Source of the DNA: Haliangiales bacterium | GTDB taxonomy: Bacteria; Myxococcota_A; Polyangia; Haliangiales; SHYZ01 | DNA length: 64,000 nucleotides | NCBI GenBank assembly: GCA_035259575.1 | Contig: DATFWE010000009.1 | Span: 29,800-93,799, forward strand | Direction: 5' to 3' | Shown: in pieces, positions 2 to 30,209 of the stretch | Position numbering within the stretch: the stretch's first letter is position 1 | Layout: each line of letters begins with the position of its first letter | Position numbers and translations under genes: made by a program | The notes under the pieces: generated by a model | What the model was told of the DNA's origin: nothing | What the model saw: only the letters and a program-made list of their open reading frames with translations | The model's database searches: none

Positions 2-2164
<2,163 letters not shown>

Positions 2165-10580: not shown

Positions 10581-11689
10581 TTGTCACCCGCTTTCTTCTT
10601 CTGCTGCTGCGCGTCCTTCTTCTTCTTGCGCTCGAGCGCCTTCTGCTCGCGCTCGATGCCCTTCTGCGCGGCGGCGATGTGATCGTCGACGATCGGCACG
10701 CCGCCGGGCCCCGCCCGCTGCTTGTACTCGGCGAGGAACTTCTGCGCGCTCTGCATGCGCGGCAGCCCGTCGAGCCCGGGGAACGGATCCGCGTCGAGGT
10801 AGAGGATCCCCAGGTTGAAGTACGCGGGCGCGTAGCCGGGGTTGATCTGCTGCGCGAGCTTCAGCTCCATCTCCGCCTTGCGCAGGAGGGTGTCGCGCGC
10901 CGTCGGGTCGTCGGCCGAGCGCCCGCGGTAGGCGGCGCCGAGGTAGGTGTGCGCGCGCGCCGACTGGCTCTGGAGCGACACGAGCCGCTCGAACACGTTG
11001 ACGGCGTCGGCGTAGCGCTTGCGCTTGAGGTAGATCGTCCCCTTGTTGTGGAGCGCGGCGATGTAATCCGGCCGCAGGGACGTCGACCGTTCGTACGCCG
11101 ACAGCGCCTCGTCCTCGCGGTGGGTGCGGTCGTAGGTGAGACCGAGGAGCATCCACAGGACCGGGCTCTGGTCGCCCTCGCGCTGGCGCTTGGCGATGGT
11201 GAGCACCGCCTCGACCTTGTCGTCGTACCCCTTGAGATAGTACGCGTGCGCCAGCCGGATCATCGCCGGGACGCTGGACTCGTCTGCGTCGAGCGCGGCG
11301 CGGGCGGCGCGCATCGCCGTGTCGGCGTCGCGGGCCTTGAGCGCCTGGTCGGCCTTGCGCAGCTGCTCCTGGACGATGGCTGAGCGCTTGTCCGCCGGCA
11401 GATCCAGCGTCGGCGGCTTGGGACCCGTCAGGGCCGGAGCGGCGGGCTCCGGCGCGGGCGGAGGAGGAGCCGGCGTCGCCGTCGCCGGCTGCGGCTCGGG
11501 CGGAAGGTCGGTGTAGGTGACCTCGGCGTCGCTCGCGGGCTTCGGCGCCGCCGCCTTCGCGGCCGGCGTCGTCGGCTGCCGGGCCGGCTTCGAGCCGCCG
11601 CAGGCCGCCAGCGCCAACGCCCACGTCAAGACACACCACCGCACGGACGTACCGACGCGTGAGCCCGAGAAACGATCTGGCGGGCTCAT
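10577..11689 (-). CDS. TPR-repeat lipoprotein (GltE/AglT/NfsE-like)
   Basis: Lipobox LALAACGG and a Pro/Ala-rich linker, followed by several TPR units (..AMIRLAHAYYLKGYDDKVEAVL.., ..IAALHNKGTIYLKRKRYADAVNVFE..). The ATG at 11689 overlaps the upstream TGA (ATGA). The upstream part of the 1428-aa track ORF is shadow frame. Confidence 0.7.
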   Translation of the reverse strand: MSPPDRFSGSRVGTSVRWCVLTWALALAACGGSKPARQPTTPAAKAAAPKPASDAEVTYTDLPPEPQPATATPAPPPPAPEPAAPALTGPKPPTLDLPADKRSAIVQEQLRKADQALKARDADTAMRAARAALDADESSVPAMIRLAHAYYLKGYDDKVEAVLTIAKRQREGDQSPVLWMLLGLTYDRTHREDEALSAYERSTSLRPDYIAALHNKGTIYLKRKRYADAVNVFERLVSLQSQSARAHTYLGAAYRGRSADDPTARDTLLRKAEMELKLAQQINPGYAPAYFNLGILYLDADPFPGLDGLPRMQSAQKFLAEYKQRAGPGGVPIVDDHIAAAQKGIEREQKALERKKKKDAQQQKKKAGDK

Positions 11690-14600
11690 GGATTCTGCTC
11701 CTTGTCCACGAGCTCGTCCCGCTGGACCGGATACTGGTCCGCGGCGATGTACGAATTCAGCCGCTGCTGCGCCAGCTTGGACCACTCGTTGGCCACACCT
11801 GCCTTCTTGGCCGTTTCGACCGCGCGCAGCCATTGTTTCTTGGCGAGCTCGGTGTTGGGCGCGACCTGCTGCTCCAGGCTCTCCTGGTAGGACCCGAGCA
11901 CATTCTGTTCGGGATACTGCTTGTCCAGGCGCGTGATCTCGGCCGGCACTGGAGCGTCGAGGAGCTTCTGCCCGGCGAAGAACGCGATGTCCCCCAGGCG
12001 CACGATCGCCGCCAGCGACCACGACGCCTCGAACCGGGCCACCGCCTCGTAGCCGGCCGACGTCGCCTTCGCCACCTTCTGCAGCTCGTCGATGGTCTTG
12101 ACCACCGCCGCCGAGGCGCGCGTCTGGTTCTTGTCGGCGATGTTGCCCAGCCAGCGCACCTTGTACTTCTCGAACTCCTTCTTGTAGTACTGCTCGGCCA
12201 GCCAGAACTGCGCCTCCCCCGCCAGCTCCGACGCCGGCGACGCCGGCTTTTCCCCCGATTCGTCGTACGCGCGGATCGTCGCCTTGTAGTACTTGTCGGC
12301 GGCGTCCTTGTCGCGCGCCTTCTCCATCGCCTTCGCCGTCTTGTGCTGCGCCAGGACGAGCTTGAACCCGGCGCCCGCGTCCTTGCCGTACTGGCGCTTC
12401 CACTGGTCGAACGTGGCGATCATGTCCTTGGTGTTGCCGGCCTTCTCGTAGACGAGCGCCGCGTTGAAGAAGGCGTCGCGCGCCCGCTCGCGGTTCTTCT
12501 GGTCGAACGCAGCGTAGCGCTTGTACAGCGTCGCCGCGCCCGGGTCGTTCTTGCCCCGGTCGTAGTAGACGCGATCGAGATCGCGCAGGAGCGCCGCGTT
12601 GTAGAGCGCGTTCACGCGCGCCTCCTCGAGGTTGAACTCCGGCCGCGATGTGCGCCCCGGCTTGGCCGCCTCGTCGACGACCTGGAGGTACGTGTCCACG
12701 GCCGCCTCGTAATCGAACGCTGCCTGGTAGGACTCCGCAGTGCGGTAGAGCGCCTCGATGTAGTACTCCGACTTGGCGAACTCGGGGACCTTGACGAATT
12801 CCTGGTACAGCGCGACGGCCGTCTTGGGCTTGCCCGCCTTGGTATAGGCGAGCGCCGCGTTGAACATCGCGCCGGCGCGATCGGCGAACACGTCCGTGCC
12901 CGCCTTGTACAGGCCGTAGAACCGCTGCCCCGCCTCGTCGAACCGCCCGTCCTTGTAGGCGTTGATCGCGACGGTGTACTCGTTCGACAGCTTCTGCTTC
13001 TGCGCGACGAGGACGTCCTGCGGCGTCGACCCGCACTTGTCGCCGATGAACTTGTCGGCGGTCGCCTGGAACTTGTCCGTCTGCCCTCGCCCCTGGTAGA
13101 TGGCCAGCATGCCCTCCTTGGCCTGCACCGCCTCGGAGGTCTTGCAGTACGTCGTCATGATGCCCTGGAAGCGGGCGAGCGCGTCGTCGAGCTGGACGTG
13201 GCGGTAGGAGATCATCGCCGCCGCCAGCGCCTTCTGCGACGCCGTGGAATCGTTCGGCACCAGCTTGGCGTACTCGTCGTAGGCGCCCTGGAGGTCCCGG
13301 TACAGCGACGGGACCGACAGCGAGCGCGCGCCCTTGGCGAACGTCTCGGGCGTCGGCACCGGCGGCTCCTTGAGCGCCCCCTGGGCCTTGGCCTGGGCCA
13401 CCGCCTCCTCGTACGCCTTGACCACCGAATCCGCGGCGTCGTCGTGGTACTTGGTGCCGAGCTCCTGGTGGTCGCGCACCCACCGGTAGCGCTCGACCGA
13501 GGCCACGTACTGCTCGCTGAAATAGAGGCAGTCGGCGAGGCGGTAGGTCACCTCGTAGGCGTCGGACGAGTTGGGAAACTCCTGCAGGTACGCCTGGTAC
13601 AGGTTGGCCGCCTCGGCGTAGAGGCGCAGGTAGCCGCGCTTCCCGTCGGGCGTCGGCGCCTTCTGGTACTGCTGCTTGGCCAGCTGCGCGCTGCGGTGCT
13701 GGTTGCGCGCCGCCTCGATCAGCGAGCCCTCGGTGAGGCGGCTGGCGTTGTCCATCGCCTCGCGGTTGGTCTCGTTCGCCGTGTACCACGGGGTGCCGCG
13801 CTTGTACGCCGTGGCCAGTCTCGCCCGCTCGTCGCCCGCCGCCTGCGCGTCGCCCATGAACGCGAGCGCGTCGACGATCTTCTGGTGCACGACGGGGTTC
13901 CTCGGGTGGGTCGGGTAATGATCGAGCGTGAACCGCCAGGCGTTGATCGCCTCGCGGTAGGCGGTGCGGATCTCCGGCGGCACCTCGCCCCCCGGCGGCG
14001 TCCCCGCGGACAGGCGCAGGACGTCGCCGACCTGCTCGTAGACGTCGCGCACGTGCCGCTCGTTCGTCCGGCCCTTGTAGAACGCGTTCAGGCGCTCCAT
14101 CGCCTTCACCGGGTCGGACAGCGTGTTCTCCTCCCACGGGTCGGTGAAGCTGATCGCCAGGTACTGCACCGACTCGCCGCGGAGATCGTTTTTCGGCTGC
14201 CCCTGATCCTCGAGCTTGTCGGAGTAGGCGACCAGCTCGTCGAACGCCTGGATCCCGTCCATGAACTGGTTGTTGCGGTAGTAGGACCAGGCGAGCTTGT
14301 AGAGCGCGATGTCGTAGAACTTGGACTTCGTGTTGTGCGCGACGCGCTTGTAGGCGGCGATGGCGGTGGGCAGCGAGCCGGGCGTGTCGAAGTCGATCTC
14401 GCCGACGCGGATCCAGCCCTCGTCGATGAGGTCCTGGTTCTGCGTCATCGGCTCGCAGCCCTGGTATGGGTCGACCGTCTGCGGCCGCGCGCCCGCGGCC
14501 AGGCGGCGGCGGAGCTCGCGCGGATCCGGCGGAGGCGGCGGCGTCCCCAGCGGGTCGAACTTGTTCCGGCACACGAGGCCCAGGAACGCCTGGCGCGACT

Positions 14601-15207
14601 CGGGCGTCTGGCGCATCTCGCCGCGGTAGTAGGCGTATAGGTAGATGGCCCCGTCGACCTGCCGGTACTTCGGGAACCGTTCGTTGATCTGCCGCCAGAT
14701 GTCGAGGGACGGCGTGTAGTCCGGCCCCGCGTACTGCGGCGGAGCCTCGGGGTCGACCGGCGGCGGCGGCGTGTCGGCGGAGGCCGCCTCCTTCTCGTCC
14801 CACTCCCACTTGGCCTTGTCGAGGTAGAGATCCGCCAGGCGGAACATCGCGTCCGGCGTCCACTTCGGATCGTCGGGGTACTTGACGAGGAACTTCTGCA
14901 ACGCCTCGAGCGCGCTCATGTGACGCGCGCGGTAGTCCTTCTCCGCCCCGTCCATCGCCTTGTGGTAGCGCTCGGCGGCTGCCCTCACCTTGTCCTGGTA
15001 CTCGCGGCGGAGGATGCCGCGCATCTGCTCGACGTGGTCGCCGACGGCGCCGGCGTAGCGATCGGCGTCGCGCTCCACCTCCTTGAGCACATCGAGCTCC
15101 TGCGGGGTGAGCTCGCGCGGCGGCGCCCCCGGTTTGGGCCTCGGCGGCGCGGGCTGCTGCTGCGCCCAGGCCGTCGACGCGACCAGCGCAATGAGGAGCG
15201 CCATCAT
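11686..15207 (-). CDS. Large periplasmic TPR protein (GltD/AgmU/NfsD-like), about 1173 aa
   Basis: Signal peptide MMALLIALVASTAWAQQ starts at 15207. TPR-like helical repeats run throughout (..FRLADLYLDKAKWEW.., ..ALYKLAWSYYRNNQFMDGIQAFDE..). Size and position between the GltC-like and GltE-like genes fit. The 66 codons upstream in the track ORF are the repeat element, not protein. Confidence 0.75.
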   Translation of the reverse strand: MMALLIALVASTAWAQQQPAPPRPKPGAPPRELTPQELDVLKEVERDADRYAGAVGDHVEQMRGILRREYQDKVRAAAERYHKAMDGAEKDYRARHMSALEALQKFLVKYPDDPKWTPDAMFRLADLYLDKAKWEWDEKEAASADTPPPPVDPEAPPQYAGPDYTPSLDIWRQINERFPKYRQVDGAIYLYAYYRGEMRQTPESRQAFLGLVCRNKFDPLGTPPPPPDPRELRRRLAAGARPQTVDPYQGCEPMTQNQDLIDEGWIRVGEIDFDTPGSLPTAIAAYKRVAHNTKSKFYDIALYKLAWSYYRNNQFMDGIQAFDELVAYSDKLEDQGQPKNDLRGESVQYLAISFTDPWEENTLSDPVKAMERLNAFYKGRTNERHVRDVYEQVGDVLRLSAGTPPGGEVPPEIRTAYREAINAWRFTLDHYPTHPRNPVVHQKIVDALAFMGDAQAAGDERARLATAYKRGTPWYTANETNREAMDNASRLTEGSLIEAARNQHRSAQLAKQQYQKAPTPDGKRGYLRLYAEAANLYQAYLQEFPNSSDAYEVTYRLADCLYFSEQYVASVERYRWVRDHQELGTKYHDDAADSVVKAYEEAVAQAKAQGALKEPPVPTPETFAKGARSLSVPSLYRDLQGAYDEYAKLVPNDSTASQKALAAAMISYRHVQLDDALARFQGIMTTYCKTSEAVQAKEGMLAIYQGRGQTDKFQATADKFIGDKCGSTPQDVLVAQKQKLSNEYTVAINAYKDGRFDEAGQRFYGLYKAGTDVFADRAGAMFNAALAYTKAGKPKTAVALYQEFVKVPEFAKSEYYIEALYRTAESYQAAFDYEAAVDTYLQVVDEAAKPGRTSRPEFNLEEARVNALYNAALLRDLDRVYYDRGKNDPGAATLYKRYAAFDQKNRERARDAFFNAALVYEKAGNTKDMIATFDQWKRQYGKDAGAGFKLVLAQHKTAKAMEKARDKDAADKYYKATIRAYDESGEKPASPASELAGEAQFWLAEQYYKKEFEKYKVRWLGNIADKNQTRASAAVVKTIDELQKVAKATSAGYEAVARFEASWSLAAIVRLGDIAFFAGQKLLDAPVPAEITRLDKQYPEQNVLGSYQESLEQQVAPNTELAKKQWLRAVETAKKAGVANEWSKLAQQRLNSYIAADQYPVQRDELVDKEQNP

Positions 15208-15401
15208 TGTTGCACCGCCGGCTCGCGTCCGCGCGGGGGCTCCAGGTCGCGTGGCTGCGCCTCGCTCCAGGGTCGCGCCCGTCCGCGCTTCCGCTCGCCA
15301 GCTCGTGGTTGCACCGCCGGCTCGCGTCCGCGCGGGCGCTCCAGGTCGCGTGGCTGCGCCTCGCTCCACGGTCGCGCTCGGCCGCGCTGCCGCTCGCCGG
15401 C
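15208..15401. repeat. Tandem dimer (2 x 95 nt, joined by TCGT) of the junction repeat family also found at 21627-21720 and 23191-23284
   Basis: Both copies carry (t/g)gttgcaccgcc...ccaggtcgcgtggctgcgcctcgctcca(g/c)ggtcgc... and fill the whole gap between the stop at 15402-15404 and the start at 15205-15207. The dimer is flanked by TCAT on both sides. Confidence 0.85.
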
Positions 15402-17747
15402 TCATGGCTTCTCTCCCGGCTTGGGCGGCTCCGCCTGCTTGTCCTGGATGACGTCGCGAAACTCCGCCTCGAGCGTGTTCTTCTCGCGCGCGAAATCGAT
15501 GCGCAGGCGGTCGGCGTACTTCTGCGCCTGCTCCTTCTGCGCCCACGTCACGTCGAGGAGCCCCACGTCGGAACGGACCACGAAGTCCTTGAACTTCCGC
15601 GCGACGCGCCCGAACGACCCGGCGACAACGTCGGAGCCGACGTCCACCGTCTCGCCGTCGTAGCTGCCGAGCTGCTGCTGATAGCCCACCAGCGCCGCTT
15701 TCTCCTCGGCGATCGCCACCTTGACCTCGCGGAGCTGCCCCTCCACCGCCTGGTCGATGCGGCCGTTGACCCGGCCCACGGTTTGCTCCACGTTGTCGGC
15801 GCGCGCGAGCTGGGACTCGATGTCGCGGACGCGCCCCGCCGAGTCGCCGCCGGCGCGCGACGCGGCCCGCGCGACGACGTCGTGCTCGGCCTTCACGGCT
15901 GCGCGCATCTGCTTCCGCAGCTCCTGCTCCTCGAGGGCCAGCTCGTCGCCGATTCCGGCCTCGTCCGCCGCCAGCTCGGTCTCGTGGTGGAACTTCTCGA
16001 GCTGGCCCCGCAGCGCGGCGATGTCGTCGCGGATCGGCTTGCGCTCGCGCTCGAACTGCTCGGGCGTCATCTTGACCGGCTGGGTGGCGTAGTAGCGCTC
16101 GAGCGCCACCATCTGCGCCTCGAGGCTGTACAGGAACACCTCCACCTCGGTGGCGCGCTTGTCGATCTCGTCCACCGCCTCGCGCGCCTTGCGCTGGCGC
16201 TCCTCGTAGGCGTCGCCGCTGTTGGGCAGCGCGGCGAGCTTGCGCGCCAGCCCCTCGCGCACCGCCGCGACGCGCTGGAGCTCCGCCTGCTCTCCCGCCG
16301 ACAGGCTGCCGAGGACGAGCACGCGCTCCTCGTTGCCGAGCGATGTGCGGACGCGCGTCAGCCCCTCCTGGATCTCCTCCGCCTGGGCGCGCCGCGACGC
16401 CAGCTCGGGGAAGATGCGCACGCGCGACGGCGACGCCACCGCGCGCTCGAGGCGCGCGATACCCTTGGCCGCGTCGTCGAGGTCGACGCGCACCTCGTCG
16501 AGCGTCTTGGTCACGCCGAGGACGCGCCCGGCCTCCGGATCCTCCTTCACCGCCTCCAGCGCCGTCTTGGGCACCTCGATCTGGACGTCGAGCGCCTCCC
16601 CCCCCTTGCCCGTCAGCGCGTTGAAGTATGCCCTGCGGTCGCCGTGCGCAGCCAGGAGCTTGTCGATCTCGTCCTTGCTCTTCTGATAGGTGTCGCGCAT
16701 CTGCTCGAACGTCGTCGTCGCCTTTGCATACTCCTCGCTGGTGTTGCCGAGGCCCTCGGCGCCGATCCCCTGCGCCTTGCGCAGGCGGAGGTTCCCCTCG
16801 AGGAGGCGGATCTCCGGCAGGTCCGACGCCTTGGGGCTGGCGAGCTGCAGGAGCTCGAGCGCGCGCAGCGCACGGTCGTACTGCTTGGCCTTCACGTAGG
16901 CCCAGGCGATCTCCTGCAGCGCGTCGCCGAATGCGGGCGACCGCCGGCTGATCGCCTGGTAGGCGTCGATCGCCTCCTGCGTCTGATTGCGCTCGTAGAA
17001 CACGCGCCCCAGCGCGAGGCGCGACAGCTCCACGATCATCTCCTCGTCCTTGTTCTTCGTCGGCTCGCGCGTGACGCCCTGGAACGCCTTGGCCGCGGCT
17101 GCGAGGTCGCCCTTCTGGGCGTGGGTCACGCCGATGAAGTAGTGCGCCTGCATGGCGTAGGACGACGTCGGCGGGATCGCCTCGAAGAACCGCAGCGCTT
17201 CGTCGTAGCGGCCGGCCGAGTAGGCGTACTTGCCGCGCACGTAGGGCACCGACTCGAGCGCCTTGCCCGCCGGGAGGCGGTCGAGGCGGGCCAGGTAGTC
17301 CTGGATGCGGGCCGGATCTTTGGTGCGGACGACGAGCTCGACCAGGCGCCCCAGCGCCTCGCCGTAGTGCGGCGAGCTCTCGCCGAGCGTGTCGATGACC
17401 TTGTGGAAGTAATCGCGGGCGAGGAGATTGTCGCCCTTCTTGAACAGGCAGTCGGCGAGGAAGAACAGCGCGTCGGGGTACGAGCGCGTCGTCGCGTGCT
17501 TCTCCACGACGTCGTAGAGGAGGACGGCCGCATCGTCGTAGTGGCCCACGCCGTACAGGACCTGCGCGCGGATGAGGCGGCGCTCGGCCATGTCGGCCTC
17601 GTTCTCCTTGGCCGGGGTCAGCTTGGCGAGCCCGTTCTCGAGCTCGATCGCCCGCTGCTCGAGGTAAGACAGCCGGCTTTGCGGATCCTCCTGCGCCTGG
17701 GCCGCCGCGGCGAAGCCGAGGGCGGCCACCCAGAGGAAAGCTCTCAT
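15402..17747 (-). CDS. Periplasmic TPR plus coiled-coil protein (GltC/NfsC-like)
   Basis: Signal peptide MRAFLWVAALGFAAAAQAQ. The N-terminal half holds TPR units (..AQVLYGVGHYDDAAVLLYDVV.., ..MQAHYFIGVTHAQKGDLAAAAKAFQ..). The C-terminal half is long coiled coil. It lies directly upstream of the GltD-like gene. Confidence 0.65.
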   Translation of the reverse strand: MRAFLWVAALGFAAAAQAQEDPQSRLSYLEQRAIELENGLAKLTPAKENEADMAERRLIRAQVLYGVGHYDDAAVLLYDVVEKHATTRSYPDALFFLADCLFKKGDNLLARDYFHKVIDTLGESSPHYGEALGRLVELVVRTKDPARIQDYLARLDRLPAGKALESVPYVRGKYAYSAGRYDEALRFFEAIPPTSSYAMQAHYFIGVTHAQKGDLAAAAKAFQGVTREPTKNKDEEMIVELSRLALGRVFYERNQTQEAIDAYQAISRRSPAFGDALQEIAWAYVKAKQYDRALRALELLQLASPKASDLPEIRLLEGNLRLRKAQGIGAEGLGNTSEEYAKATTTFEQMRDTYQKSKDEIDKLLAAHGDRRAYFNALTGKGGEALDVQIEVPKTALEAVKEDPEAGRVLGVTKTLDEVRVDLDDAAKGIARLERAVASPSRVRIFPELASRRAQAEEIQEGLTRVRTSLGNEERVLVLGSLSAGEQAELQRVAAVREGLARKLAALPNSGDAYEERQRKAREAVDEIDKRATEVEVFLYSLEAQMVALERYYATQPVKMTPEQFERERKPIRDDIAALRGQLEKFHHETELAADEAGIGDELALEEQELRKQMRAAVKAEHDVVARAASRAGGDSAGRVRDIESQLARADNVEQTVGRVNGRIDQAVEGQLREVKVAIAEEKAALVGYQQQLGSYDGETVDVGSDVVAGSFGRVARKFKDFVVRSDVGLLDVTWAQKEQAQKYADRLRIDFAREKNTLEAEFRDVIQDKQAEPPKPGEKP

Positions 17748-20134: not shown

Positions 20135-20195
20135 GGGCATATCCTCAGTCGAAACGGGAAACGAGTGCCGTAGTCTACCCAGGGAGCCCACCAGG

Positions 20196-21626
<1,431 letters not shown>

Positions 21627-21720
21627 TGTTGCACCGCCCCCTCGCTCCGGCGCGCCGCTCCGGGTCGCTCGGCTGCGCCTCGCTCCAGGGTCGCTCGTTG
21701 GCGCGCCTCCGCTCGGGGGC
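21627..21720. repeat. 94-nt structured junction repeat (gatA|gatB)
   Basis: It fills the intergenic gap exactly and is flanked by TCAT at 21623-21626 and 21721-21724. It shares tgttgcaccgc and the core ggtcgctcggctgcgcctcgctccaggg with the 23191 and 15208 copies. Terminal imperfect inverted repeats lie at 21636-21656 and 21700-21720. Confidence 0.85.
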
Positions 21721-23190
<1,470 letters not shown>

Positions 23191-23284
23191 TGTTGCACCG
23201 CTCGCGCGCGACGGCTCGGGGCGCCAGGTCGCTCGGCTGCGCCTCCCTCCAGGGGCGCCTCTCTCCTCGCCGTCGCGCGCTCGC
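23191..23284. repeat. 94-nt structured junction repeat (gatC|gatA)
   Basis: Same length, same conserved blocks at the same offsets as 21627-21720, and flanked by TCAT (23187-23190, 23285-23288). The inverted-repeat arms (23200-23215 and 23269-23284) differ in sequence from the other copy but still pair. Confidence 0.85.
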
Positions 23285-23572
23285 TCATTTCTCGATGATT
23301 CGCGGCACGACGAAGAAATCGTCGACGCGCGCGGGCGCGGCGGCGAGCGCCTCGTCGGCGGACAAAGACGGCGCGGCCGCGTCCTCGCGCAGGGGGCAGT
23401 CGAGCGGCACGGCATGCGTCATCGGCTCGACCCCGGTCGTATCCAGGGCCTGCAGCTTTTCGACGTAGGCGAGGATGCTCTGGAGCTCCCCGCGCAGGCG
23501 CTCGGCCTCGGCCGCGCCCAGGCGGAGGCGCGCCAGCCCGGCCAGCTCCTCGACGTCTTCCCGGGTGATCAT
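23285..23572 (-). CDS. gatC: Glutamyl-tRNA(Gln) amidotransferase subunit C
   Basis: 95 aa. [30 protein letters not shown] is the typical GatC pattern. It lies upstream of gatA. Confidence 0.9.
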
Positions 23573-25012: not shown

Positions 25013-25867
25013 GTGTCGCGTTCCCGCGTCTTTTTGACCCAGGCCGTAGTTTGCGCGCTGCTCTGCGCGGCGTGCACCGGCGCGACCGACGTGCGCCCCG
25101 TCCCGGACGCGGGGGGGCGGAGCTACGCCCGCCTCACGGTGGTGGCGACGGGGACGTCCGTGGCCGTGACCGGGCGGCTGCTCCGCTACAAGAACCTCGA
25201 CGCCGACAGCGCGCAGATCCTGGCCGGGGCGCCCCCGTACGAGGGCGCGCTGCCCGGGGCGTGCATGCTCATCGACGAGGAGACGCTGCTCGACCTGGCG
25301 ATCTCCGGGACGTCCCCCGACGCCTCGGTGCGCCTGCTCGATGCCGGCGAGGTGCTGGTGCGCGCCGCCGGCCACGCCGTGCGGCTGCCCCCGCGCTACG
25401 TCCCCGAGCTGCTGCCGTTCGTGAGCGGCGTCGCCTACACAGCGGAGACGGGCGCCGACACGGCGGCGGACCCGGTGCCGACGGAGGTTCTCGTGTCCGC
25501 GTTCGGCGGCGAGGACGTCGGCGCGTTCTCCGCCGCAGCCGAGCTGCCGCCGACCCCGCGCATCACCAGCGTGGGTGAGCCGGCGCGCGGCTCGTCGCTC
25601 GACCTGGCGTGGGAGGGGCGCGGCTCGGGGACGGTCGACCTCGTGGTCACGCGCGACGCGGGCCGCTCGGTGCGCTGCCGCGTCGCCGACAACGGCCGCT
25701 TCTCCGTCCCCGCCCGCGCGCTGGGGCCGTTGTGGGACGCGGGGCGCTCCGACGTCGCGACCGTGTCGGTCGAGCGCTCGCTGCGGACGCCGTTCTCCGC
25801 GCCCGGGCTCGACGGCGGCGACGTGGTCGTCGTCGCGCGAGACGCGGCGACCGTCCGGGTCCCCTAA
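25013..25867 (+). CDS. Hypothetical lipoprotein
   Basis: Lipobox VVCALLCAACTG. Balanced composition over 284 aa. No family motif recognised. Confidence 0.6.
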   Translation: MSRSRVFLTQAVVCALLCAACTGATDVRPVPDAGGRSYARLTVVATGTSVAVTGRLLRYKNLDADSAQILAGAPPYEGALPGACMLIDEETLLDLAISGTSPDASVRLLDAGEVLVRAAGHAVRLPPRYVPELLPFVSGVAYTAETGADTAADPVPTEVLVSAFGGEDVGAFSAAAELPPTPRITSVGEPARGSSLDLAWEGRGSGTVDLVVTRDAGRSVRCRVADNGRFSVPARALGPLWDAGRSDVATVSVERSLRTPFSAPGLDGGDVVVVARDAATVRVP

Positions 25868-26059
25868 AAACAAACAAGGAATTCGAACAAGGAATTCGAA
25901 GTCGAACGGGGGAGCAGAGAGGGCCGCTCCCGAGCAGCGAAGCGCCTCGCCGGCATTCGAATTTCGAACGGGGAAGCACAGAGGGCCTCCCGCGAGCACG
26001 GAAGGCCCTCTCCGGCATTCGAATTCGAATTCCTTGTTCCTTGTTCCTTGTTCCTTGTT
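25868..26059. repeat. AT-richer palindromic/tandem repeat block in a convergent intergenic region
   Basis: The left arm has ACAAGGAATTCGA twice (25874-25899). Two ~61-62-nt tandem units lie at 25895-25955 and 25956-26017, each TTCGAA..TCGAACGGGG..hairpin..CCGGCA. The right arm is TTCGAATTCGAATTCC plus four copies of TCCTTGT (26018-26058), the inverted complement of the left arm. Confidence 0.8.
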
Positions 26060-27889
26060 CTATTCGACCACCCGCAGCACCGGGCCGGTGCCGTCGTCGC
26101 CGGCGCGCTCGGGCGCGACGACGACCCGATTCCGCCCCTCGCGTTTGGCGCGGTAGACGGCGCGGTCGGCCGCGCCGATGAGCGCAGGCTCGTCGGCGCC
26201 GTGCGCGGGGTACGCGGCGACGCCGATCGAGGTGCGGACGATCGCCCCCACGGTCTCCGCGCCGTTGTCGACGATGATGTGCTCGGCGCCGGCGCGAATG
26301 CGCTCCGCCACCACCTGCGCGCCGGCCAGATCCGTATCCACCAGCAGCACGACGAACTCCTCGCCGCCGTAGCGGATGACCGCGTCGCCGTTGCGGACGG
26401 TGTTGTGGAGGAGCGCCGCGAACGCCACCAGCGCCCGGTCGCCCACCTGGTGGCCGTGGCTGTCGTTCACTTGCTTGAAGTGGTCCAGGTCGCACACGAG
26501 CACCGCGAGCGGGCGCTTGCGCCGCGCCGCCACGCTGAGCTGCTTGGCCAGATACTCGGACAGGAAGGCGCGGTTGTACGCGCTGGTCAGGCTGTCGCGC
26601 AGCGCGCGCTCGCGCGTCGACGACAGGAGCCGGATCGAGCTCAACGTCGTCGACGCGAAGTTGATGTAGCCCTGGCTGCCCTCGAGGGACTCGCGCGGGA
26701 AGCGGCCGCGCTCGGTCGATTGCATGTTGACGATGCCGACGAGCTCGCCCGCCGACACCATCGGCACGCAGCAGTAGGATCCCGCTTCGGGCACGCCGAG
26801 CGGGCAGGCGCACGCGACCGGCGCATCGGAGTCGGCGCTCACCGGGCGGAGCGTGCGCACCGCGCGGCAGCGCATCGGCTCGGACAGGATGGGGTGATGG
26901 CCGACCTCATCCGGCGGCAGTGGCCCCGGCCAGGTCACCTCCAGCCGGTTGCGGCTGGCGTTGCGGACGAGGATCTGGAGCTTGTCCGGCGCCATCGTGT
27001 CGTCCAGCGTGCGGGCGAGCGCCTGGTGGAGCTCGTGCTCGTCGACGAGCTGCTGCACGAACTCGCCGAAGGCGTTGAACGCCACCGCGCGCGCGTGCGC
27101 CTGGGCGCGGGCGCGCTCGCGCTCGCGCGCGGTGCGATCGAGGTCGTGCAGCGCCTGCTGCAGACCGGCGACCTCGCGCACCTTGACCCCCGCCCCCGGC
27201 GCGGCGAACGGCTCGCCGGCGCTGGCCTTGCGCTCGAGCTCGGCGAGCGGTCCGGCGGTCCGGCGCAGGAACGCGCGCATGATCCACAGGCCCATGACGA
27301 AGACGAGGGCGGTGACGCCGTGGCCGATGAGGCGCGCCTCCTGGATGAGGCGATCCGCGCGCGCAATCGCCGCCTCGGAGATGTCGCGCAACACATCGCT
27401 GAGCTCCGCGTGCGCGGCGCGCACGCGCTCGAACAGGCGCTTGCCCTCGATGAACGCGGCGGGGAGGTCCTGGATCGGCCCCTTCTCGCGCGCCCAGATC
27501 TGGGGCGAGGCGTAGGCAGTGATCCAATCCGCCGTGGCGTCGTCGACATCGTCGAGGAGCTTGGACACGCGCTCGCGCTCCCCGTCGAGGAGGAGGCGCG
27601 CGAGCTGGAGGCGCGCGTCGCGCGCCGCGTTCCGTCCCGTCTCGTAGGGCTCGAGGAGGCGCCGGTCGCCGCTCGCCAGGTAGCCGCGCAGGCCGACCTC
27701 TTGGTCGACGAGGCCGAGCAGGCGCGCGCGGGCGGACGCGGCGATCATGTCGTGGCGGACGACCGCGGCGCGGCGGTCGTCGGCGGCGCGAAGGACCCGT
27801 TCCGAGGTGAGGACCGACACCGCCGCCCCGCCGAGCAGGATCCCGCCCATTCCGGCGAGGAGCATGGCGCGCAGGGACCAGCGGAACAT
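26060..27889 (-). CDS. Diguanylate cyclase with CHASE3 sensor, GAF-like domain and GGDEF domain
   Basis: The start MFRWSLRAMLLAGMGGILLGGAAV (TM) is at 27889. CHASE3 pattern ..GLRGYLASGDRRLLEPYE... A second TM follows, then a GAF-like region and a GGDEF domain with RYGGEEF. An RxxD I-site (RNGD) lies 5 residues upstream. The rest of the 1253-aa track ORF is shadow frame over the next gene. Confidence 0.9.
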   Translation of the reverse strand: MFRWSLRAMLLAGMGGILLGGAAVSVLTSERVLRAADDRRAAVVRHDMIAASARARLLGLVDQEVGLRGYLASGDRRLLEPYETGRNAARDARLQLARLLLDGERERVSKLLDDVDDATADWITAYASPQIWAREKGPIQDLPAAFIEGKRLFERVRAAHAELSDVLRDISEAAIARADRLIQEARLIGHGVTALVFVMGLWIMRAFLRRTAGPLAELERKASAGEPFAAPGAGVKVREVAGLQQALHDLDRTARERERARAQAHARAVAFNAFGEFVQQLVDEHELHQALARTLDDTMAPDKLQILVRNASRNRLEVTWPGPLPPDEVGHHPILSEPMRCRAVRTLRPVSADSDAPVACACPLGVPEAGSYCCVPMVSAGELVGIVNMQSTERGRFPRESLEGSQGYINFASTTLSSIRLLSSTRERALRDSLTSAYNRAFLSEYLAKQLSVAARRKRPLAVLVCDLDHFKQVNDSHGHQVGDRALVAFAALLHNTVRNGDAVIRYGGEEFVVLLVDTDLAGAQVVAERIRAGAEHIIVDNGAETVGAIVRTSIGVAAYPAHGADEPALIGAADRAVYRAKREGRNRVVVAPERAGDDGTGPVLRVVE

Positions 27890-27996: not shown

Positions 27997-29943
27997 CTAC
28001 TTCTTGCGGAAGCGGTCGAAGAGGCCCTTCTTGTCGCCGCCCTTGCGCCGCATCTCGAGGAGGCGCACCTCGCGCAGCGCGTCCACGTGCCCCTCGGCCA
28101 GATCGAGGACGCGGTGGAACGCCGCCATGGCGCGCGCTTCGTCGCCGACGTGCTTGTAGAGCTGCCCCAGGTAGAAGAACGCCGGGACGCACTTCGAGTT
28201 CAGCTCGATGGCCTTGTTGAGCTCTTTCTTGATGTCGAGGGCGATCGCGTCCTTGTCGTCGGCGTGGCACCACGTCGCCCACGCGGCCATGGCGTGGTGC
28301 TCCCCCTCGTCGGGGTTGAGCTCGAGCGCGGTCTTGAACTCCTTCTCGGCGAGGGAGAAGAGCTGCCGCCTGAGCGCCATCTCGCCCTTGCGGAAGTGCT
28401 CCTCGGCGGTGAGGATCTTGGTGGCGCGGGCGACCTCGTCCTCGTCGCCGCGCATTGCGCCGTGCCGGCCGCCCTCGAGGAGGTGGGAGTATTCGGCGCG
28501 CTTCTTGTCGTCGCCCAGCACGGCATACGCCTCGCTCAGGCGGGCGAAGATCTTCTCCACCTGCGGGCGGAGGTTCTCGAGCTTGACGATCGACAGGCGA
28601 TCGGGGTGGTACATCTTGGCCAGTTGGAAGTACGCGGTCTTGATCTGGGCGCTGCCCGCGTCGCGCGGAACGCCGAGGATGACGAAGTAGTCGGCGTTGA
28701 CCTCGACCTGTCCGAGCTTGTGGATGATGTGCTCGCGCAGCGTGCCCGCGGCGCCGGCGCCGTCGAGCGTGTGGCGGCCGACCTTGGGGAAGGGCCCGGA
28801 CCCGGACGCGCTCGGCTGCGGCGACTCGGCGCGCGGCGTCGGGGCTTTTGCCTCGGCGTGCGGGCCGGTCTGCCGCGCCTGCGGGCCGGTGGCGCGCACG
28901 TTCGGTCCGGTCGGCGACGGCGGGCGGAGAGGTCCCGTGTCGCGCGCCTTCGGCGCAGTGGAGGACGACGGCGACGGCGGATGGAGCGGCCCGGTTCCCT
29001 GGGGCGGCGTGCGATTCGCGCCGGTGCCGTTCGGGACGCGCGACGGCGGCGCCGGCGGCGGCGCCGGCGGCGGCCCGACGTTGGTCACGCCGGTGCGCGG
29101 GCGCTGCGGCGGATCCGGCGCGAACGGGGACTCGATGCGGGGGTTGGTCGTCTCGGCGATTTCCATCTCCTGGGTCGCCTCGCGCGGGCGCTTGCGCAGG
29201 CGGGGGACGGAGGTCGCGGGCTTCACGTCGACGGCGTCGAAGGCGTAGAGGCCATAGACGACCGCGAGCACCGATTCGCGCGGCAGGGTGAGGCACGCGG
29301 CGACGAGGTCGTCGAGCAGCCAGTAGCCCTTGTTCAGGTAGGCCAGCACCACGAGCTCGTCGTCGGCGAACCCGTAGGCTCCCTGGATCCCGTTCGGGTC
29401 GATGGCCATCTTGAGCGCCGACCCGGACAGCGCGCCGCCCAGCTCGCGTTCCAAACGGTCCTGCCCGCCATGCAGCCGCATGCCCTTGTAGACCACCCAG
29501 CGGGGCTCGAGCGGCTCGGCGGCCTGTTCCTCGGGCGGGTGCGCCCCGGCCTCCACATGGAATGTGGCATGGGGGAGCGCAAACAGTCGGAGCGCACGCC
29601 GCGTCAGCGTCATGCGGACCGCCCGCGAAACATTCTCCGCGGAGAGCGCCTTCATGTCGACGAGAACCTCGAGCTGCCCCTTCTTGCGGTTCTGCGCCAT
29701 CCGGCGCAACGACTCGCCCAGCGCGCTCGGATCGACGAGGCCACCGTCGAGGGCGACCCGCCCCAGCGTGTCCTCGGGCGCCGCGCTCTCGGCTGCGACC
29801 AGCACGCCCGACCGGAACCACACCGCATGGCGCCGCATGTCCTGCTCCAGGCGGAGCGCGCCGGTGAAGCCCTGCACCGCCAGCCTGCCCATGAGCGGCC
29901 CCAGCGGCACGGTTTCGACGTTTCCCGAGCTGGGAAAGGTCAC
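27997..29943 (-). CDS. DUF4388 (PatA-N-like) / Pro-rich linker / DnaJ J-domain / TPR protein
   Basis: N-terminus ..LMGRLAVQGFTGALRLEQDMRRHAVWFRSGVLVAAES.. is the DUF4388 pattern. The J domain DYFVILGVPRDAGSAQIKTAYFQLAKMYHPDR contains HPD. The C-terminal repeats are TPR-like. Confidence 0.8.
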   Translation of the reverse strand: MTFPSSGNVETVPLGPLMGRLAVQGFTGALRLEQDMRRHAVWFRSGVLVAAESAAPEDTLGRVALDGGLVDPSALGESLRRMAQNRKKGQLEVLVDMKALSAENVSRAVRMTLTRRALRLFALPHATFHVEAGAHPPEEQAAEPLEPRWVVYKGMRLHGGQDRLERELGGALSGSALKMAIDPNGIQGAYGFADDELVVLAYLNKGYWLLDDLVAACLTLPRESVLAVVYGLYAFDAVDVKPATSVPRLRKRPREATQEMEIAETTNPRIESPFAPDPPQRPRTGVTNVGPPPAPPPAPPSRVPNGTGANRTPPQGTGPLHPPSPSSSTAPKARDTGPLRPPSPTGPNVRATGPQARQTGPHAEAKAPTPRAESPQPSASGSGPFPKVGRHTLDGAGAAGTLREHIIHKLGQVEVNADYFVILGVPRDAGSAQIKTAYFQLAKMYHPDRLSIVKLENLRPQVEKIFARLSEAYAVLGDDKKRAEYSHLLEGGRHGAMRGDEDEVARATKILTAEEHFRKGEMALRRQLFSLAEKEFKTALELNPDEGEHHAMAAWATWCHADDKDAIALDIKKELNKAIELNSKCVPAFFYLGQLYKHVGDEARAMAAFHRVLDLAEGHVDALREVRLLEMRRKGGDKKGLFDRFRKK

Positions 29944-30209
29944 TCGCGCTTCTCCGCTCGACGGGTCCTCACCTTACGGAGTACGTAGGACAGGGCAAAT
30001 ATGCCCACCATGCTCAACACCACCCCGACGACCCACGGATCAGCGTCCATACGCATTGGATTTTACAAGAGTGTCGGCCAAACGTCTCCCTTGTCAATGT
30101 GGCGACTAGACGTATTCTTCCTTACCCCTCATACGTTGATAGATCTTCCGGGCCTTCCCTTAGGGGCGAAGGCCGCGGACTCATTGGGGTTGCGTTATAC
30201 TCGAGGCGC

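Follow-up and report, generated by a model that had tools for sequence, protein, structure and literature searches.

A tandem dimer of a short interspersed repeat is inserted exactly into the 4-nt ATGA overlap of two co-transcribed gliding-motility-like genes, gltC and gltD, in the 64,000-nt stretch of contig DATFWE010000009.1 analysed here, the whole of which is called the window. The repeat represents an undescribed family in uncultured soil Myxococcota that is similar to the mycobacterial interspersed repetitive units (MIRU). The usual copy holds a small open reading frame (ORF) that starts on the stop codon of the upstream gene and ends on the start codon of the downstream gene, and the two units at gltC/gltD belong to a 99-nt variant that is in frame with the GltD-like protein. 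An interspersed repeat dimer in a stop/start overlap, with a relay ORF in the family and an in-frame 99-nt variant at this site, is the best overall explanation of these observations and a probable one.

The dimer and the empty sites of relatives

The genes at this junction are read on the minus strand. The insert (15204-15405) consists of two 99-nt units that stand head to tail and are 91-92% alike, and on the gene strand it reads ...GAGAAGCC-ATGA-[95 nt]-ACGA-[95 nt]-ATGA-TGGCGCTC.... A preliminary description of this DNA had given two 95-nt cores (15208-15302 and 15307-15401), with TCGT between them at 15303-15306 and TCAT on the outer flanks (15204-15207 and 15402-15405; ATGA on the gene strand), and every coordinate holds on re-reading. 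Its account of a decayed inner junction also stands, the inner boundary reading TCGTGGTTGCACC and the outer one TCATTGTTGCACC. Deletion of the insert in silico gives GAGAAGCCATGATGGCGCTC, restoring the ATGA stop/start overlap as had been proposed. The 66 open codons that lead from the ATG at 15405-15403 in frame to the GltD-like start at 15207 were confirmed, and so was the internal duplication in the resulting 1286-aa ORF, in which ERGAATRPGAPARTRAGGAT is present twice.

Chance does not account for the repeat. Tandem Repeats Finder (TRF) reports a period of 99 with 2.1 copies, 91% matches and a score of 352, and a repeat search found the units 92% identical and linked them to further copies at 21.6 kb and 23.2 kb. 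The tail GGTGCAACAATGA occurs four times against 0.3 expected, a count reached in none of 100 shuffles. A covariance model of the family, built from 14 copies, matches the unit at 15204-15306 with 90.9 bits (E ~1e-22). The two copies differ at ~9 positions, therefore the dimer is not an assembly duplication.

Homologues of the GltC-like protein were found only in metagenomic Myxococcota, the nearest named ones being in Kofleriaceae metagenome-assembled genomes (MAGs) at ~40% identity. The gltC/gltD junction is present in six related contigs (L011-L016), with GltC-like identities of 87, 80, 72, 70, 70 and 83%, respectively. In all six, the genes meet in a 4-base overlap, ...GAGAAGAAGCC-ATGA-GGCGC... 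(GTGA in L011), and no copy of the repeat is found. The preliminary description had proposed to compare this orthologous junction, and the outcome is zero copies in each of L011-L016, where a bare ATGA or GTGA remains. Therefore, the dimer is an insertion and not a conserved protein N-terminus. The result that had been named as speaking against an inserted DNA element, namely the same 66 codons conserved as protein in relatives, is the opposite of what was found, as the relatives are without these codons.

The features of the junction are as follows, all on the minus strand.

15204-15405: the complete insert, which separates the GltC-like from the GltD-like gene and consists of two tandem units of 99 nt and one flanking ATGA; absent at this junction in L011-L016.
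15303-15405: upstream unit A, ATGA...ACGA, period 99 nt, in alignments A1 and A2; a single long hairpin at -55.5 kcal/mol.
15204-15306: downstream unit B, ACGA...ATGA, period 99 nt, matched by the covariance model (90.9 bits); folds at -50.4 kcal/mol.
15402-15405: left ATGA; GltC-like stop TGA at 15404-15402, with the overlapping ATG at 15405-15403 opening the 66-codon frame.
15303-15306: decayed inner junction, ACGA for ATGA; the preceding tail has AACC for AACA.
15204-15207: right ATGA; the GltD-like protein (MMALLIALVASTAWA...) has its junction-proximal start in the ATG at 15207-15205.
15208-15405: open frame of 66 codons (MSRRAAARPSATVERGAATRPGAPARTRAGGAT, twice) that leads in phase to the GltD-like start; the proteins P0121 and P0126-P0128 have similar units of 33 aa in frame.
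15352-15367: invariant apex motif GGAGCGAGGCGCAGCC of unit A, from the family alignment.
15253-15268: invariant apex motif GGAGCGAGGCGCAGCC of unit B, from the family alignment.
15204-15216: conserved unpaired tail GGTGCAACA plus ATGA of unit B, that is GGUG, then an A-rich spacer, then the start codon.
15402-17747: upstream gene, GltC-like tetratricopeptide repeat (TPR) protein of 781 aa; best NCBIfam match gliding_GltC at 71.5 bits, far under the 450-bit cutoff.
11686-15207: downstream gene, GltD-like TPR protein of 1173 aa counted from 15207, syntenic in relatives.

An SD-like (Shine-Dalgarno-like) GGGAGAG lies within gltC directly upstream of the left ATGA, and the GGUG of the unit B tail may act as a weak SD for the GltD-like start.

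Presence and absence of the repeat also vary at other junctions shared with relatives. L011 has a degenerate copy (L011:636-737) that follows the gatB stop directly, and the window has none at the corresponding position (20190-20215). This L011 copy lies outside any coupled junction, with a decayed apex and tail and with stops in its RTG frame (R being A or G). A promoter-like TTGACC-17 nt-TAGACT ahead of rplU follows it closely, and the window gatB extends a few codons beyond that of L011. In L042, the GltC-like protein of which is 51% identical, a tandem dimer follows gltD, and the gltD/gltE junction of the window is a bare ATGA at 11689. The L042 array (L042:10001-10211) has a first unit of 102 nt with a replaced apex and a canonical second unit of 98 nt, and the contig stops at the start of an apparent third unit. 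In addition, a Logan contig of 2.6 kb that encodes the exact GltC-like protein ends 32 nt past its stop, inside the repeat.

The window itself has ~10-12 apparently empty RTGA overlaps between long ORFs with high GC content at third codon positions (GC3). Examples are 39948, 44382 and 56841 on the plus strand and 59306, 52536, 34531, 19541, 11689 and 10580 on the minus strand. By a rough count, the element fills ~1/5 of the junctions of this kind in the window.

Members and anatomy of the repeat family

Two single copies of the repeat lie elsewhere in the window.

21623-21724, minus strand: single copy at the gatA/gatB junction, 98-nt period, 33-aa mini-ORF.
23187-23288, minus strand: single copy at the gatC/gatA junction, 98-nt period, 33-aa mini-ORF.

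Besides the window copies, at least 13 more are present in soil metagenome contigs. Scanning metagenome contigs with a centre-plus-tail pattern gave 25 loci, including 12 clear members that lie nearly all on short Joint Genome Institute (JGI; Ga...) contigs, two of these loci (L028 and L033) being the same copy. With the covariance model, 18 matches reached E < 1e-9, some of them new copies (L011, L021, L036 and L042). A scan of GTDB representative genomes, which do not include the source lineage, with GGCGCAGCCN{25,50}GGTGCAACAATG returned ten matches in unrelated taxa. These were judged to be chance, as they all lack the central motif and fit the element model poorly. A related peptide was found in a MAG labelled Haliangiales, and blastn against plasmids gave no match. 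A protein profile search with doubled mini-ORF peptides matched only five proteins, indicating that the protein database is mostly without these ORFs.

From 5' to 3', a unit consists of the left RTGA, a 5' arm rich in GCGAGCG, the apex CTGGAGCGAGGCGCAGCCGAGCGACC, a complementary 3' arm, the unpaired tail GGTGCAACA and the right RTGA. Apex and tail are essentially invariant across the family. The usual RTGA-to-RTGA period is 98 nt; units measure 95-102 nt, and one reaches 150 nt via an internal insertion. All copies are co-oriented with their flanking genes, and most sites have one long ORF that terminates exactly on the left TGA and another that begins on the right RTG. It had been suggested that the element is not specific to gatCAB, which is borne out by the gltC/gltD dimer and by at least ten other unrelated gene pairs that flank copies in metagenome contigs. 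Judged from their sequences, an ORF ending ...RCTGYHNIVKAV and its downstream neighbour read as CoxS/CoxL-like, and the downstream neighbour of an ORF ending ...DIYVKLLRGQP reads as an ABC-type ATPase. Other flanks read as a short-chain dehydrogenase/reductase (SDR)-like gene, from its GGGSGIG motif, a trpF-like gene and a probable lipoprotein.

Two further contigs show particular arrangements. The copy at L036:84-237 has an insertion of ~52 nt in its apex (ACCCGCCAGCGGGGCCCAGCATGGATGCGGCTTCGCCGCGGTTCAGATCTCC), and the preceding partial tandem copy has the same insertion. In L021, a contig of 1.8 kb, two different copies share an identical upstream flank of 28 nt (...GGAGGGTGCCCTAGTGA; 1-28 and 1620-1648); this duplicated flank could reflect paralogous genes or a strain-mixing assembly artefact.

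Structure of the hairpin

Pairing was tested with a 31-pair hairpin on a MAFFT alignment that had not been fitted to structure. Paired cells amount to 81.9%, against 73.0 +/- 0.9% in shuffles and 22-40% in slid controls, in which the partners were moved by 1-3 columns. Changes on both sides are seen at 13 pairs, a number reached in none of 500 shuffles. The stems differ strongly among the three window sites yet remain complementary (GCCGGC/GCCGGC, GCCCCC/GGGGGC and CGCGCGACGGC/GCCGTCGCGCG). Among the non-Watson-Crick cells, 66 of 80 are G.A or A.G, present as tandem GA in GCGAGC/GCGAGC, and C.T does not occur, therefore the structure is better on the sense strand, that is in mRNA or sense single-stranded DNA. 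Single units fold at -50 to -55 kcal/mol, and the dimer folds into two separate hairpins. The ends of the hairpin are asymmetric, being paired from the first base on the 5' side and having a 9-nt tail on the 3' side.

An intrinsic terminator was ruled out, as the tail of the hairpin is GGUGCAACAAUGA and no U-tract; correspondingly, no terminator-like site was found in 14900-15700. No promoter was found at the dimer region. At gathering thresholds the window has no Rfam match, and over 15100-15500 two matches appeared at chance level (E 2-7). Comparison by eye of the stems, as possible guides, with the flanking sequences showed no resemblance.

A reading frame that may relay coupling between genes

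In a unit with the 98-nt period, the RTG on the upstream stop opens a 33-codon ORF (M-S-x-R...AVQQ), the TGA of which overlaps the downstream RTG. Phase was tabulated for 19 units: 13 are relays (2 mod 3), four are in frame (0 mod 3), one is off phase (L035) and one is the decayed, uncoupled copy of L011. The 97-nt period of L035 is the only off-phase length variant. A period of 95 nt in L021b keeps the relay phase, and the in-frame variants measure 99 nt (window), 102 nt (L042a) and 150 nt (L036b, through a 52-nt insertion). Besides these units, RTGA-to-RTGA scars of 23 nt in relay phase were found in L026 (19 nt past the copy at 310-411, minus strand) and at L036:234-260. Each scar joins the start of a 5' arm to a tail and carries an 8-codon ORF ending on a real gene start, and its size is that expected from a hairpin deletion between the GCGAGCG repeats of the two arms.

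SD-like motifs (GGAG, GAGG, AGGA or GGGA) precede the left start at 11 of 15 sites but the right start at only 2 of 15. This skew suggests that the ribosome-binding site of the downstream gene serves the mini-ORF after insertion, the real gene being left with only GGUG-CAACA-AUG. The proposed mechanism begins with the SD of the downstream gene, which would sit in the 3' end of the upstream gene and come to serve the mini-ORF once the element inserts. The mini-ORF would be initiated as the downstream gene formerly was, and ribosomes would cross and melt the hairpin, stop at AUGA and re-initiate on the real gene. With coupling relayed in this way, insertion would be nearly neutral, following the logic proposed for mycobacterial MIRU.

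Possible in-frame fusion with GltD, and similar proteins

Both units at gltC/gltD have one extra base after GGAGC (column 72 of alignment A2), which makes them 99 nt long; therefore, the ORF from 15405 meets no stop and reads through both into GltD. The inner ATGA would have no role in the fused frame, and it has decayed to ACGA. GltD would be made either with a 66-residue Arg-rich extension before its signal peptide or from 15207 via the weak GGUG tail, and the extension would be lost if the signal peptide is cleaved. From the sequence, translation from 15405 with removal of the extension together with the signal peptide and a start at 15207 appear about evenly balanced.

The GltD-like start at 15207 reads MMALLIALVASTAWAQQQ..., and the beginning of this short form (15162-15207, minus strand; MMALLIALVASTAWA) has no basic residue before the hydrophobic core. 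In the five orthologues that were read (L011 and L013-L016), which begin with MRR.., MSERMR.. or ..MMRG.., Arg precedes the core. A whole-library protein search with the 66-residue extension matched only six proteins, and four of them (P0121, P0126, P0127 and P0128) are in-frame tandem arrays of 33 aa in the same shifted frame. P0122 has an in-frame unit of 102 nt followed by one of 98 nt. The array of P0127 runs on into a prepilin N-methyl motif, and that of P0128 may run on into a Tat-like (twin-arginine translocation) signal, MTTRRAFLAG.

Origin of tandem arrays

That the element can stack at one site had been concluded from the window alone, and tandem arrays indeed recur at at least three other loci, namely L021 (1649-1820), L036 and L042, as well as in the proteins P0121 and P0126-P0128; only dimers or trimers were seen. 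Tandem partners are mutual nearest relatives, with identities of 91% in the window, 100% in L021, 99% in L036 and 84% in L042. As the partners are mutually closest, a single resident 99-nt copy was most likely duplicated locally to give the gltC/gltD array, rather than two insertions having occurred independently. The ~9% divergence of its units indicates that this duplication is not recent, and again that it is no assembly artefact. For the family as a whole, we infer mobility.

Weighing of the explanations

A further-reaching proposal, which we put forward tentatively and at somewhat less than an even chance, is that a selfish family, independent of MIRU, has converged on the same trick. Its cassette would begin with a start on the stop of the upstream gene, continue with a hairpin and an exposed A-rich tail, and end with a stop on the start of the downstream gene. 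As ribosomes would be passed across it, the cassette could colonise coupled junctions with hardly any cost. Phase would act as a filter on length, 98 nt giving the relay, 99, 102 or 150 nt an in-frame fusion, and the 23-nt hairpin-deleted scars staying in phase, and in-frame tandems would persist mainly before proteins with a removed N-terminus, such as GltD with its Sec signal and possibly P0127 with its prepilin leader.

Several points weigh against the repeat-and-relay explanation. We infer mini-ORF translation and re-initiation from sequence features, and at ~75% GC hardly any stops occur in the other sense frame or in the antisense frames either. The open frame was thus dropped as proof of translation, other frames being equally open at this GC content. 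Among seven independent length variants, one is off phase against ~2.3 expected, which is not significant (p ~0.26), and the 98-nt phase is largely inherited from one ancestor. In P0127, the prepilin motif has to be close to the N-terminus, which makes translation of its in-frame extension improbable. At 11 of 15 sites the left RTGA has the same R as the right one (one-sided Fisher p ~0.14), which falls short of proof of a target-site duplication. No transposase or autonomous partner turned up, no search having been aimed at a Y1 transposase or RAYT. Single-sequence folding z-scores are modest, from -1.5 to -3.6, and -0.19 for the whole dimer. The conserved hairpin could equally serve an RNA-level host function.

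This last point leads to the strongest of the alternatives, which we nevertheless consider unlikely. The hairpin would be a host intercistronic RNA element, such as a stabiliser, an RNase III/E processing site or a protein-binding site, that sets cistron ratios in the manner of enterobacterial repetitive extragenic palindromes (REP), and the mini-ORF would be incidental. The compensatory stem changes together with the invariant apex and tail suggest sequence-specific recognition of a structured RNA, the G.A mismatches are specific to the sense strand, all frames are open anyway, and the earliest descriptions of REP, as listed among the references of PMC3184786, treated them as intercistronic regulatory elements. 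Nevertheless, presence or absence varies among close relatives at three syntenic junctions, which fits a selfish insertion better than a required regulator, and the flanking gene pairs are functionally unrelated. The exact RTGA-to-RTGA architecture and the in-phase 23-nt scars would be needless for an RNA stabiliser, and no Rfam family matches.

Somewhat more doubtful is a non-autonomous derivative of a single-strand transposon (IS200/IS605 or REP/RAYT type), which would insert 3' of (R)TGA without true duplication and whose own terminal RTGA would recreate the target and favour stacking. Consistent with this, orientation to the non-palindromic tetranucleotide is constant at all sites, there is one hairpin with asymmetric ends, tandem arrays recur, and at 4 of 15 sites the left RTGA is not identical to the right one, L011 having CTGA against ATGA. 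Selection can, however, also give constant orientation, and the private indels shared by tandem partners fit local duplication. Moreover, the stems differ widely between copies, unlike hairpins recognised by TnpA, and a Y1 transposase or RAYT gene was neither looked for nor found.

Finally, the idea that the 198 nt encode a true repeat domain at the N-terminus of the GltD-like protein and are no inserted DNA can draw on the open, in-phase 66 codons and on the short form MMALLIAL..., which lacks a basic residue before the core where the L011 and L013-L016 orthologues have Arg, but as an account of origin it is effectively refuted: none of the six related contigs carries the repeat, the same sequence lies at gatC/gatA and gatA/gatB in a different phase, conservation reaches third codon positions across the apex, and the stems covary as base pairs.

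Significance

Few sites of bacterial genomes are as constrained as translationally coupled RTGA overlaps. If the repeat-and-relay explanation is true, a mobile repeat that brings its own relay ORF to RTGA is a recurrent solution and not a mycobacterial oddity. A hairpin with variable stem and invariant apex raises the question of what recognises it, and the three phase classes (relay, fusion and scar) provide a natural test bed for the chaining of termination and re-initiation. The units also have practical consequences: they mislead gene callers, as in the 1286-aa ORF of the window and in database proteins of 67-218 aa that are translated repeats, and they break short-read assemblies, several contigs ending within a copy. 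They could be used as strain markers for uncultured Myxococcota, similar to variable number tandem repeats (VNTR).

Other features of the window

An AT-rich intergenic island was noted at 25866-26065 in this genome of ~75% GC. It has a 62-nt unit repeated 2.2 times (25894-26029), flanked by AACAAGGAATTCG x ~2.2 on one side and, inverted, TTCCTTG x 4.4 on the other, together with several TTCGAA palindromes. ARAGORN reports an 88-nt tRNA-Gln(CTG) at 28047-28134 on the minus strand, which overlaps a long high-GC3 ORF (27997-29973) and is probably a false positive.

Comparison with known systems

Two candidates were set aside. SECIS-like (selenocysteine insertion sequence) recoding of the upstream UGA was rejected, as many unrelated genes precede the element and its length far exceeds that of a bacterial SECIS. 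An attC-like site, considered from the GCAAC in the tail, was rejected as the other end has no complementary core and the conserved part is the apex and not the base. As regards classical miniature inverted-repeat transposable elements (MITE), defined by a target-site duplication and by terminal inverted repeats in common with an autonomous insertion sequence, the arms of the family are inverted repeats of non-conserved sequence and its ends are asymmetric.

REP are palindromes of 20-40 nt with a conserved 5' GTAG, usually after stop codons, which have no ORF and alternate in orientation within bacterial interspersed mosaic elements (BIME). Like REP and BIME, the family consists of short GC-rich interspersed palindromes in transcribed intercistronic or 3' regions of operons that may affect mRNA. 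Unlike them, its units are ~98 nt, head to tail, bounded by RTGA within stop/start overlaps, and have an ORF. REP were ruled out, as the unit is ~98 nt and head to tail and its 5' end is without GTAG; a RAYT gene was not searched for. Palindrome elements derived from IS200/IS605 are likewise in one orientation beside a specific tetranucleotide, dominated by hairpins and possibly capable of tandem re-insertion. In contrast to them, the family has one hairpin and not two subterminal ones, its stem sequence is not conserved, and no transposase was identified, no search having been aimed at one.

Rickettsia palindromic elements (RPE) are palindromic repeats whose frame joins the host protein, as outlined in the section of PMC3184786 on these elements. 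The 99-nt variant is similar in that it would add 2 x 33 residues to GltD. As far as that section describes them, RPE lie inside coding sequences, whereas the repeat lies at a gene boundary and its standard form ends on the next start codon, unfused.

By its described features, the closest known analogue of the family is the mycobacterial MIRU (Supply et al. 1997, as summarised in PMC12548453 and PMC3184786). According to the passages on MIRU in PMC12548453, PMC3184786 and PMC2734929, these are units of 40-100 bp in tandem arrays between operon genes, inserted at start codons and rich in GC inverted repeats. The ends of their ORFs reach into the neighbouring genes (coupling at -4 nt), and filled sites show tetranucleotide direct repeats where relatives have the site empty. 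The family set beside them, by description and not by a MIRU consensus sequence, is of the same size class and lies between co-oriented operon genes in the direction of translation. In 13 of 19 units its small ORF begins on the upstream stop and finishes on the downstream start (-4 nt), the window dimer being an in-frame variant. A tetranucleotide RTGA is found on both sides, with R identical at 11 of 15 sites and the site empty in L011-L016, and GC-rich inverted repeats and head-to-tail tandem arrays are present. Each functional criterion contained in those MIRU passages is thus found in the family. The differences concern the host, which by protein similarity is an uncultured myxococcote (nearest named proteins in Kofleriaceae/Haliangiales MAGs) and not Mycobacterium, and the unit itself, nearly the whole of which is one long hairpin with covarying stems and an invariant apex, seen in arrays of only two or three.

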